Below are positions 4,604 through 19,885 of a stretch of 43,253 nt of DNA, piece by piece. The position numbers and the translations under genes were made by a program. Each line of letters opens with the position of its first letter. Position 1 is the stretch's first letter. The DNA lies in the IMG/VR virus record IMGVR_UViG_2778261009_000005, positions 1-43,253 of that record, one strand, 5' to 3'. The stretch is from a virus. Lineage: Duplodnaviria > Heunggongvirae > Uroviricota > Caudoviricetes. The notes below the pieces were generated by a model that had not been told where the DNA came from, searched no databases, and saw nothing but the letters and a program-made list of their open reading frames with translations.

Positions 4604-4620
4604 AGAATTATTAGAGCAAT
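4604..4620 (-). promoter_or_regulatory. C1 operator-like site (Op99-region)
   Basis: Minus strand ATTGCTCTAATAATTCT, 15/17 match. Confidence 0.6.
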
Positions 4621-4680
4621 AAATTTTGAGAGAAAAATCCCACTCCACCAGCCAAAAACTGGATTGTTTTTCATAGTTGT

Positions 4681-4703
4681 TTGACAATTGCTCTAATAAA
4701 TTA
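4681..4703 (+). promoter_or_regulatory. Promoter -35 TTGACA followed by C1 operator-like site (Op99-region), rightward toward coi/c1
   Basis: TTGACA at 4681-4686 followed by ATTGCTCTAATAAATTA (16/17) at 4687-4703. Confidence 0.6.
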
Positions 4704-14362: not shown

Positions 14363-17300
14363 ATGACTCATCAGACACACACTATTGCTGAATCCAATAA
14401 CTTTATCGTCCTTGATAAGTACATCAACGCTGAGCCAACAGGCGACAGCTACCAGAGCGAATCGGACCTGGAACGTGAACTGATTCAGGACCTGCGGAAT
14501 CAGGGCTATGAATTTATATCCGTAAAATCTCAGTCGGCTATGCTGTCCAATGTTCGGGAACAGCTTCAGAGCCTCAATGGTGTGGTGTTTAATGACAGCG
14601 AGTGGCGGCGTTTCACGGAGCAGTATCTGGACAACCCGAGCGATGGCATTCTGGATAAGACCCGTAAAATCCATATCGACTATATTTGCGACTTTATTTT
14701 TGATGACGAGCGACTTGAGAACATCTATTTGATAGATAAAAAGAATCTCATGCGCAATAAGGTGCAGATTATCCAGCAGTTTGAACAGACGGGTTCTCAT
14801 GCTAACCGTTATGACGTCACGATCCTGGTTAATGGTTTACCGCTGGTGCAAATCGAACTAAAAAAACGCGGGGTGGCGATTCGTGAGGCTTTCAACCAGA
14901 TACATCGTTACAGTAAAGAGAGTTTTAACAGCGAAAATTCCCTGTTTAAGTATCTGCAACTGTTTGTCATTTCTAACGGCACCGATACCCGTTATTTTGC
15001 CAACACGACAAAGCGCGATAAAAACAGTTTTGACTTCACCATGAATTGGGCGAAATCAGACAACACGCTGATTAAAGACCTCAAAGACTTTACCGCTACC
15101 TTTTTCCAGAAACATACTCTGCTGAATGTTCTGGTGAACTACAGCGTTTTTGACAGTAGTCAGACGCTACTGGTGATGCGACCGTACCAGATTGCCGCCA
15201 CCGAGCGCATTCTGTGGAAAATTAAGAGTTCCTTTACAGCGAAGAACTGGTCAAAACCGGAAAGCGGTGGGTATATCTGGCACACTACCGGTTCTGGTAA
15301 AACCCTCACCAGCTTTAAAGCCGCGCGTCTGGCAACAGAGCTGGACTTTATTGATAAAGTCTTCTTTGTGGTCGACAGGAAAGACCTCGATTACCAGACC
15401 ATGAAGGAATATCAGCGTTTTTCGCCAGACAGCGTCAACGGCTCGGAAAATACCGCAGGCCTTAAACGAAATCTGGATAAGGACGATAACAAAATTATCG
15501 TCACTACTATTCAGAAACTTAATAACCTGATGAAAGCAGAAAGCGACCTGCCTGTATATAATCAGCAAGTGGTGTTTATATTTGATGAATGCCACCGCAG
15601 CCAGTTTGGAGAAGCGCAGAAAAACCTGAAGAAGAAATTCAAACGCTATTATCAGTTTGGTTTTACCGGCACACCTATTTTCCCGGAAAACGCCTTAGGC
15701 TCAGAAACGACCGCCAGCGTATTTGGTCGTGAATTGCATTCGTATGTAATTACCGATGCGATTCGTGATGAAAAAGTGCTCAAATTCAAGGTGGACTATA
15801 ACGATGTGCGGCCACAGTTTAAGTCTTTAGAGACAGAAACTGACGAGAAAAAACTAAGTGCGGCTGAAAATCAGCAGGCGTTTCTTCATCCCATGCGTAT
15901 ACAGGAAATTACGCAATATATTCTGAATAACTTCCGCCAGAAGACGCACCGTACTTTCCCTGGCGCAAAAGGTTTTAATGCTATGTTGGCAGTGAGCAGC
16001 GTGGATGCTGCAAAAGCCTATTACGCGGCGTTTAAACGGTTACAAGAGGAAGCCGCTAATAAATCTGCAACTTATAAACCGCTGCGTGTTGCGACAATCT
16101 TCTCCTTTGCCGCTAATGAAGAACAAAATGCCATTGGTGAAATTTCCGATGAAACTTTTGATACCAGCGCAATGGACAGCAGTGCTAAAGAGTTTCTTGA
16201 CGCTGCAATTCGTGAGTATAACAGCTATTTTAAAACTAACTTCAGCACCGACGGTAACGGTTTTCAGAACTACTATCGCGATTTAGCCCAACGGGTTAAA
16301 AATCAGGATATCGATCTGTTAATTGTCGTGGGGATGTTTTTAACTGGCTTCGATGCTCCAACATTGAACACGCTATTCGTCGATAAAAACCTGCGTTTTC
16401 ACGGCTTGATGCAGGCATTTTCCCGCACCAACCGTATTTATGATGCAACTAAAACCTTCGGTAATATCGTCACTTTCCGGGATCTGGAACGCTCAACTAT
16501 TGATGCCATAACGCTGTTTGGTGACAAAAACACCAAAAATGTGGTTTTAGAAAAGAGTTATGCAGAGTATATGGAAGGCTTTACTGATGCTGCCACTGGT
16601 GAAGCTAAGCGCGGCTTTATGGCAGTAGTTTCAGAACTGGAACAACGGTTCCCTGACCCTGCCAGTATTGAAAGTGAAAAAGAGAAGAAAGACTTCGTTA
16701 AACTGTTTGGTGAATACCTGCGTGCCGAGAACATCCTGCAAAACTATGATGAATTTGCCACGCTGAAAGCCCTGCAACAAATCGATCTTAGCGATCCTGT
16801 TGCGGTAGAAAAATTCAAAGCAGAACATTATGTGGATGATGAAAAGTTCGCTGAATTGCAAACGATTCGTCTCCCTGCTGAACGCAAGATTCAGGATTAT
16901 CGTTCTGCCTATAACGATATTCGTGACTGGCAGCGCCGCGAGAAAGAAGCTGATAAAAAAGAAAAATCAACCACTGACTGGGATGACGTGGTTTTTGAGG
17001 TCGATTTGCTGAAGTCTCAGGAAATAAACCTGGATTATATCCTTGGACTGATTTTCGAACACAACAGACAAAATAAAGGCAAGGGCGAAATGATCGAAGA
17101 GGTCAAACGCTTAATTCGTTCAAGCCTGGGGAACCGGGCGAAAGAGGGCCTGGTGGTCGATTTTATTCAGCAAACGAACCTGGATGATTTACCGGATAAA
17201 GCCAGCATCATTGACGCATTCTTTACGTTTGCTCAACGCGAACAGCAACGTGAAGCAGAAGCATTGATAAAAGAAGAAAATCTCAATGAAGATGCAGCAA

Positions 17301-17479
17301 AACGCTATATTCGCACGTCTTTAAAACGCGAATATGCCACCGAAAATGGCACAGAATTAAACGAAACATTACCAAAACTTAGTCCATTGAATCCGCAATA
17401 TAAAACGAAAAAACAGGCAGTTTTCCAGAAAATCGTCTCGTTTATTGAGAAGTTTAAAGGCGTAGGCGGAAAAATATAG
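14363..17479 (+). CDS. hsdR: Type I restriction endonuclease/translocase subunit HsdR
   Basis: 1038-aa ORF with helicase motifs TGSGKT and DECH and an N-terminal nuclease region; own ribosome-binding site AAAGGA. Confidence 0.92.
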
Positions 17480-17558
17480 CCCAATTCGTGTTTTTCTTGC
17501 GGGTTCTTAATTAAACCCGCAAGAGACCGTGGGGTTCCAAATGGCTAATATACTCCCC

Positions 17559-17645
17559 TTATCCATGAGCGACGATGCCGCCAAAAGTGATAGAGAACAA
17601 CCAGAAATAGATCGCGGCCATAATGATTTTGAATGCCGTGTTCAT
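17559..17645 (-). CDS. Candidate 28-aa hydrophobic peptide
   Basis: MNTAFKIIMAAIYFWLFSITFGGIVAHG with AGGAG 9 nt upstream of the ATG; below the ORF-track size cutoff; unverified. Confidence 0.3.
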   Translation of the reverse strand: MNTAFKIIMAAIYFWLFSITFGGIVAHG

Positions 17646-17673
17646 ATTTTCAGCTCCTGTGATTGATTGGATA

Positions 17674-17704
17674 CATGCCGCGCCTTGCGGCATGTTTTTA
17701 TTTT
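17674..17704 (+). terminator. Intrinsic terminator (plus strand) downstream of hsdR
   Basis: CATGCCGC-gcctt-GCGGCATG followed by TTTTTATTTT. Confidence 0.65.
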
Positions 17705-17727
17705 CACTTTCTCTGTTTTAAATATCA

Positions 17728-17744
17728 AGATTTATTAGAGCAAT
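17728..17744 (-). promoter_or_regulatory. C1 operator-like site
   Basis: Minus strand ATTGCTCTAATAAATCT, 16/17 match. Confidence 0.6.
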
Positions 17745-19819: not shown

Positions 19820-19836
19820 ATTGCTCTAATAAAAAA
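19820..19836 (+). promoter_or_regulatory. C1 operator-like site
   Basis: ATTGCTCTAATAAAAAA, 14/17 match. Confidence 0.55.
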
Positions 19837-19860
19837 CGTGATGAGTGTACATCACGTTTT
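19837..19860. terminator. Bidirectional hairpin terminator between two convergent C1 operator-like sites
   Basis: CGTGATG-agtgta-CATCACG flanked by an A-run and a T-run. Confidence 0.5.
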
Positions 19861-19868
19861 AAAAAAAT

Positions 19869-19885
19869 TGAATTATTAGAGCAAT
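19869..19885 (-). promoter_or_regulatory. C1 operator-like site
   Basis: Minus strand ATTGCTCTAATAATTCA, 14/17 match. Confidence 0.5.

Follow-up and report, generated by a model that had tools for sequence, protein, structure and literature searches.

A 28-codon open reading frame (ORF28) on the minus strand of this P1-like phage-plasmid is, on sequence grounds, almost certainly a gene, and it probably encodes a genuine 28-residue single-pass membrane protein as the first cistron of the C1-repressed pmgT operon, carried on an mRNA that has a hairpin at its 5' end. No described family appears to contain ORF28 and, in the databases searched, it is confined to P1-like phage-plasmids of enterobacteria. 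P1 is among the most thoroughly annotated of phages, and a conserved first cistron of one of its C1-controlled operons is nevertheless missing from the reference annotation.

Identity and organisation of the locus

The window, i.e. the whole stretch of 43,253 nucleotides analysed here (IMG/VR record IMGVR_UViG_2778261009_000005), is identified as a P1-like phage-plasmid (Punavirus). The ~600 bp surrounding ORF28 are 95-97% identical to P1, P7, SJ46, RCS47, phi456 and others, and the E. coli plasmid pPC6-mcr1 is 100% identical to the window over those 600 bp. From pap to the ORF28 stop codon the identity with P1, P7, SJ46 and RCS47 is 96-97%, and the genes downstream of this point have been replaced. 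Pfam scans place lpa, a DUF968 gene and doc together on the minus strand, followed by plus-strand hsdM, hsdS and hsdR and, 3' of these, by pap and pmgS, which are again on the minus strand; the EcoR124_C domain in hsdR assigns the system to type IC. The 264 bp between the hsdR stop codon (17479) and that of pap (17744) hold ORF28, the hairpin and the operator. The features on which the analysis turns are, in order of coordinates:

14363..17479, plus strand: hsdR, type IC with EcoR124_C domain, convergent with ORF28 (from the ORF list and Pfam)
17495..17524: perfect 11-bp inverted repeat in the hsd cassette tail, 16 nt past the hsdR stop, dG ~-25 kcal/mol
17555..17558: break-point GGGG after the ORF28 stop, where the pmgT Shine-Dalgarno sequence gives way to the hsd cassette tail
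17559..17645, minus strand: ORF28, 28 codons plus TAA, MNTAFKIIMAAIYFWLFSITFGGIVAHG, with a predicted single transmembrane helix at residues ~7-26
17654..17658, minus strand: Shine-Dalgarno sequence AGGAG, 8 nt 5' of the ATG at 17645, GGAGC being invariant in four lineages
17659..17670, minus strand: leader motif CCAATCAATCAC, of which the core CCAATCAC and the GGAGC are invariant in all lineages
17673..17695: GC-rich hairpin ACATGCCGC/GCGGCATGT, a 5' stem-loop of the mRNA on the minus strand and a terminator with a T-run (17696-17705) on the plus strand
17700..17728, minus strand: sigma-70 promoter TTGATA-17-GAAAAT, corresponding to P1pmgT, with a predicted start at ~17693 in the hairpin base
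17728..17744, minus strand: C1 repressor operator, homologue of Op88/OpmgT, overlapping both the -35 box and the final base of the pap stop codon
17744..18250, minus strand: pap, encoding a HAD/PNKP-type phosphatase, upstream of ORF28 on the same strand

Elsewhere in the window three minus-strand tRNA genes (31027-31099, 33117-33189 and 33195-33266) match the P1 tRNA cluster; across the window the search found neither RNA families other than tRNA nor a C4 gene.

The ORF28 gene model

The minus strand contains a 44-residue ORF at 17559..17693, the final 28 codons of which, from the ATG at 17645, constitute ORF28. The preliminary description of this DNA had called the shorter frame, with a good Shine-Dalgarno sequence, as the gene of a small hydrophobic membrane peptide: the peptide is exactly as given there and, with 28 residues, a GRAVY of 1.3, a best 19-residue hydropathy window of 2.1 and a single predicted helix, it fits that characterisation. 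Conservation in relatives, one of the checks suggested there, bears the call out, ORF28 being whole in ~140 P1-group sequences and having a homologue in a second clade, that of Cronobacter phage JK004. Of 85 loci drawn from phage records, genomes and IMG/VR, 83 have the frame intact and 66 encode an identical peptide; in metagenomes it is intact at 57 of 59 loci, the non-intact copies being contig ends or rearrangements. No frameshift occurs over the ~140 P1-group copies, beside an adjacent non-coding leader that carries indels of 2 nt and 4 nt. Polymorphism within the P1 group amounts to 13 non-synonymous and 8 synonymous changes (p = 0.07 against neutrality), which is only weakly better than neutral; the group is too uniform to settle whether ORF28 is a gene, and the JK004 clade therefore provides the decisive comparison.

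Annotation of the locus is inconsistent. Neither the P1 reference (NC_005856) nor pPC6-mcr1 (L235) carries a call, one RefSeq record (among L235, L236, L002 and L003) has a 41-residue plus-strand ORF, and SJ46 and phi456 have a 44-residue minus-strand ORF; the 44-residue calls in these two phages and in various RefSeq plasmids, labelled 'membrane protein' or 'hypothetical protein', share locus and reading frame with ORF28 and differ from it in start codon. The 44-codon version was rejected: JK004 has no upstream start, the 2-nt and 4-nt indels of P1-group variants fall inside the extension, and its ATG lies within the hairpin stem and has no Shine-Dalgarno sequence. Since the extension is not conserved, the 28-codon model is the right one.

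A separate observation concerns nucleotide diversity in 136 P1-group sequences, which is 0.0045 over codons 1-21 (17583-17645), synonymous sites included, and 0.04-0.075 in the operator, the promoter, the 3' end of pap and codons 22-28, a ten-fold difference from the flanks. As the low diversity of codons 1-21 extends to synonymous sites, a constraint at the nucleotide rather than the protein level is possible; the invariance could equally well be due to recent exchange, the locus lying at the edge of a recombination hot spot.

Comparison with the JK004 clade

The second clade comprises phage JK004 and three assembly contigs, and has a homologous ORF of 53 codons at the same position. JK004 Pap is ~70% identical to that of the window, and the layout in JK004 runs from the pap stop through C1 operator, promoter, GC hairpin and CCAATCAATCACCGGAGCC to the ATG of the 53-codon ORF; this ORF stands behind pap, operator, hairpin and CCAATCAC-GGAGC in JK004, L181, L232, L233 and L234. 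A protein search with the JK004 ORF recovered two more variants (66-71% identity) on P1-like contigs of 17-94 kb, in which synteny is kept. The N-terminal 24 residues of the 53-codon ORF align with ORF28 without gaps, M1, K6, A11 and W15 being invariant and WLFS common to both, and the positional score of the pair reaches z ~5 (p <= 1e-4) against composition-preserving shuffles. The in-register antisense frame scores equally in the BLOSUM shuffle test (z ~5); the test is thus blind to the choice between sense and antisense, and the two are told apart by start and stop codons, the Shine-Dalgarno sequence and dN/dS. The antisense frame, i.e. the plus-strand ORF of 41-45 residues that the single RefSeq record annotates, is interrupted by a stop codon in L232/L233 and lacks a start codon in JK004, and its start in that record needs hsd-specific sequence; it was set aside as a candidate gene. 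For the sense ORF, dN/dS within the JK004 clade is 0.22-0.39 with no indels, and Fisher tests on synonymous versus non-synonymous differences give p = 0.0006-0.03. Between JK004 and L232 pS is 0.34 in the ORF and 0.80 in pap, an example of what recent exchange could produce, and between L232 and L233 it is equal in both. The C-terminal tail that is conserved in the JK004 clade is missing from the P1-group protein, and P1-group ORF28 could be a decaying stump retained for coupling alone.

A profile search of 1.84 billion proteins detected no lineage beyond the P1 group and the JK004 clade, and with two clades only the evolutionary depth is small. A Pap-anchored scan of species-representative genomes returned two E. 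coli loci only, and two Pap-anchored scans of IMG/VR returned P1-group loci only, the use of JK004 Pap as query gaining nothing. In metagenomes an operator-plus-motif pattern recovered 58 loci of the P1 group and one resembling JK004, besides three chance matches; the pattern CCAATCAATCACBGGAGC gave two matches in IMG/VR, both discarded as chance occurrences in unrelated coding DNA.

Operator, promoter and 5' leader

The site at 17728-17744, read on the minus strand, is ATTGCTCTAATAAATCT, with one mismatch to the asymmetric 17-bp C1 consensus ATTGCTCTAATAAATTT, and coincides base for base with the monovalent operator OpmgT (formerly Op88) of the P1 GenBank record, in which it overlaps the predicted promoters P1pmgT and P2pmgT. 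Matches to the consensus with up to three mismatches number 14 in the window, against 0.28 expected; C1 sites include those at 4604-4703, 19820-19885, 33921-33948 (an overlapping divergent pair) and 37208-37224. The promoter TTGATA-17-GAAAAT has a PWM score of 11.7, at about the 99th percentile of the window background. What the preliminary description took for a C1-operator-like site upstream of the ORF is thus the homologue of an annotated P1 operator and, because ORF28 lies directly behind Op88 and its predicted promoter, the peptide should be produced on C1 derepression, as had been anticipated there. A literature search on Op88 yielded unrelated accession-like strings only, and a P1vir RNA-seq paper does not discuss the locus.

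Read on the plus strand, the hairpin at 17673-17695 has a stem of 9-10 bp followed by TTTTTATTTT and qualifies as an intrinsic terminator; it folds with -18 kcal/mol (z = -4.3). It had been proposed that an 11-mer and a strong plus-strand terminator cover the 5' region of the ORF in antisense. The terminator stands, its position being over the 5' UTR and not over the 28 codons, and the 11-mer is not identifiable, the sole 11-nt feature being the inverted repeat at 17495-17524, which is 3' of the ORF.

The hairpin occupies the same position in four lineages, and its stem sequences differ: CATGCCGC/GCGGCATG in the P1 group, GGCCGC/GCGGCC in JK004, TTGGCAGTCAC/GTGACTGCCAA in L232 and GGCGGTCGC/GTGACCGCC in L233/4; it is also present in L181. 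One compensatory change (A-U to G-C, L232 versus L233/4) and three independent wobble changes (17687 C>T in P1-group variants, L181, L233/4) were found, the latter giving G-U pairs in the ORF-sense RNA. On the opposite strand the wobble changes are A-C mismatches, so that the substitutions in the hairpin fit the sense RNA. In every lineage the hairpin begins 3-7 nt past the best -10 box, which places it at the extreme 5' end of the predicted transcript. The antisense U-tract has 7 of 8 positions in the window and 6 of 8 in P1, as against 2-4 of 8 elsewhere. A point on the other side is that in JK004 extra flanking pairs make the antisense fold of this region the more stable of the two. We read the conserved function of the hairpin as that of a 5'-terminal mRNA stem-loop, in which it would have a stabilising role, and plus-strand termination as a property of the P1 group that is useful once hsdR converges on the locus.

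Between hairpin and start codon, the combination CCAATCAC-GGAGC is invariant in all four lineages (the window at 17659-17670 and its equivalents in L006 and L232-L234) despite the diverged leader around it, which exceeds the need of a Shine-Dalgarno sequence. The 12-mer CCAATCAATCAC is not over-represented within the window. The idea that this motif is the target of the P1 C4 antisense RNA was dropped because the window holds no C4 gene or non-tRNA RNA family.

Junction with the hsd cassette and coupling to the next gene

Homology between P1-type and hsd-type loci ends directly after TAAGGGG. P1-type loci read TAAGGGGGATGCATG, in which the stop codon is followed by GGGGGATGCATG, a pmgT-type ribosome-binding site that overlaps the ORF28 stop; in the JK004 clade the stop of the ORF and the start of the next gene overlap as ATGA. 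Since the stop codon overlaps the translation signals of the next gene, ORF28 takes its place at the head of the Op88 unit, as a first cistron coupled in translation to the one that follows. The genes from pmgT to humD form variable region 8 of P1-like phage-plasmids, which begins at pmgT (PMC9603915). In the window, pmgT through humD have been replaced by the convergent type IC hsdMSR, an arrangement found in ~258 of 869 matching plasmids and in 221 of 890 matching complete E. coli genomes; in ~70% of carriers and the whole JK004 clade the downstream genes are co-directional, not convergent. A third type of junction is the deletion in L045, which begins directly after the ORF28 stop. Pfam searches with pmgT/U/V and with the downstream neighbours in SJ46 and JK004 gave no informative match except Ead/Ea22. 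Two P1-group loci from IMG/VR (L056 and L064) have their junction inside ORF28, after codon 19, where AT-rich foreign DNA gives rise to chimeric ORFs of 48 and 86 residues.

The inverted repeat at 17495-17524 is the sole structure between hsdR and the hairpin at 17673. It was rejected as an intrinsic terminator, having no U-tract on either strand, and may be a 3' stabiliser or processing site. With no U-tract terminator ahead of the hairpin, read-through from the convergent hsdR (14363-17479) would be antisense to ORF28 and end at ~17705, in agreement with the expectation of antisense read-through set out in the preliminary description. The antisense overlap is real in the window, and is the outcome of a cassette swap with its junction 1-5 nt past the ORF28 stop.

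The same type IC hsdR is found on conjugative plasmids, IncF ones among them, where the 75-nt cassette tail comes after it and leads into the last 80 nt of ORF28, at whose end IS1 cuts the sequence off (window 17480-17638; L231 3501-3714). A P1-derived stump of ORF28 that travels with the hsd cassette implies that P1-like phage-plasmids and F-type plasmids have exchanged DNA. Identity of 98% to R124/3 downstream of hsdR is already noted in the P1 record.

Alternative explanations

The arrangement had been likened to a type I toxin-antitoxin module, in which ORF28 would be membrane-damaging and silenced by a plus-strand RNA, either a small RNA or the hsdR 3' UTR, that ends at 17673-17705. We consider this quite improbable. 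The peptide is small and very hydrophobic, in the size class of TisB and DinQ, which are likewise small hydrophobic peptides under repressor control; a strong plus-strand terminator lies exactly over the ORF28 5' UTR, with hsdR having no terminator of its own ahead of it; nucleotide-level invariance is unusually high in the leader motif and in the first 21 codons; and a weak -10/-35 pair at 17623-17650 could yield a 47-nt RNA complementary to CCAAUCAAUCAC. However, the best plus-strand promoter (ATGATT-16-TATTTT) scores 7.2 against a background median of 7.1, i.e. not above background, and its counterpart in JK004 has lost the essential -10 T, the best antisense site of JK004 lying elsewhere. 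The U-tract is absent outside the P1 group, the hairpin substitutions favour the sense RNA, and most carriers (~70%, together with the JK004 clade) have no convergent gene to supply an antisense transcript. The Shine-Dalgarno sequence, in a predicted leader of ~48 nt, is essentially unpaired in both MFE and centroid folds. Searches of Pfam, NCBIfam and PHROG at E <= 10 gave no significant match to a toxin family (Hok, Ldr, TisB, Ibs, ShoB, DinQ, Zor, Fst and others), and Rfam gave no antitoxin RNA, its sole match being a sub-threshold one to GcvB that is due to the terminator. No dedicated gene for an antisense or small RNA, equipped with a promoter and a terminator of its own, was found, the terminator existing in the P1 group only, and on this evidence the toxin-antitoxin design is unsupported. 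Still more doubtful is a version in which ORF28 is a depolarising peptide of the TisB type, silenced by C1, and the hsdR 3' UTR serves as a second, cis-antisense lock in hsd carriers. Were it true, the transcript of a restriction gene would double as an antitoxin in about one quarter of P1-like phage-plasmids, and RNA-RNA pairing would account for the unusual invariance seen in the leader motif and in codons 1-21.

It is also conceivable, and in our judgement unlikely, that translation of ORF28 matters only because it feeds the next gene and/or blocks Rho, the peptide being functionless and an inert relic in the window. The overlap of the stop codon with the next ribosome-binding site or start codon in both clades is what such a role would look like, and the variable codons 22-28, the loss of the conserved C-terminal tail from the P1-group version and a near-neutral ratio of non-synonymous to synonymous changes within that group point in the same direction. 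Against this, hydrophobicity, K6, A11, W15 and WLFS are kept between clades at ~50% DNA identity, dN/dS is 0.2-0.4 with the soluble tail included, and the ORF is intact in the ~20-25% of carriers that have no coupling partner (hsd-type loci and the L045 deletion), in which the junctions spare it. That there is no gene at all, and the frame is open by chance within a conserved regulatory leader, is highly improbable: ORF28 is indeed very short, its family narrow, and both the reference P1 and the 100%-identical RefSeq plasmid leave it unannotated, yet frame, start position, Shine-Dalgarno sequence and length are preserved across two clades whose DNA has diverged, dN/dS is below 1 with significant Fisher tests, and not one of the ~140 P1-group copies is frameshifted next to a leader that tolerates 2-nt and 4-nt indels.

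Proposed mechanism and implications

The preferred reading, of ORF28 as a membrane protein gene at the head of the C1-repressed pmgT operon, suggests the following sequence of events. In the lysogen, C1 would occupy the operator overlapping the -35 box, and repression is predicted. On induction or infection the promoter would fire and give a transcript beginning at the base of the GC-rich stem-loop, which may protect the ORF28 mRNA from 5'-end-dependent decay, whilst the short, CA-rich, unstructured leader and the strong Shine-Dalgarno sequence would drive translation. The peptide is expected to insert into the inner membrane, and presumably to act there, at the start of lytic development. In ordinary P1-type genomes ORF28 and the next gene (of pmgT type) would be translationally coupled. 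In the window hsdMSR has replaced everything from 1-5 nt past the ORF28 stop up to phd/doc and, the rest of the operon being replaced, ORF28 would be the only product left. The other strand of the hairpin leads into the A-tract of the promoter region and so makes, by chance, a good intrinsic terminator for hsdR; the antisense relation of the hsdR 3' UTR to ORF28 would then be incidental rather than a designed antitoxin.

As a discovery in a classic phage this is modest, and lies at the level of annotation. The sequence of ORF28 or its stump occurs in 890 of 5,426 complete E. coli genomes, phage-plasmids carrying mcr-1 and ESBL genes among them. The corrected model (28 codons, start at 17645, hairpin leader at the 5' end) supplies a defined target, namely a repressor-controlled micro-protein at the onset of the P1 lytic cycle, and ORF28 marks exactly where restriction systems and similar cargo are swapped in and out, 1-5 nt past its stop codon. 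Should the peptide prove to have no phenotype, the finding would amount to an annotation correction only.

Comparison with known systems

The TisB/IstR-1 and DinQ/AgrB systems of E. coli produce one-helix peptides of 27-29 residues that are made only once a repressor leaves its operator. ORF28 resembles them in size, in its one predicted helix and in its predicted repressor control, and differs from both in having no sequence relationship to them and no dedicated antisense or small-RNA gene that could be found; unlike tisB and dinQ, it has a short leader with an open Shine-Dalgarno sequence, and not a translationally inert primary transcript. Also close is the pmgT operon of P1 itself (NC_005856), which shares with the window, at 96-97% identity and directly after pap, ORF28 together with its operator, predicted promoter and hairpin, and in which no gene is annotated between promoter and pmgT. 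At the level of the mRNA the likeness would be to stabilisers of the ompA type, in which, as is predicted for the ORF28 mRNA, a stable GC hairpin stands a few nucleotides from the transcription start; in the ORF28 hairpin it is the structure that is conserved and not the sequence.
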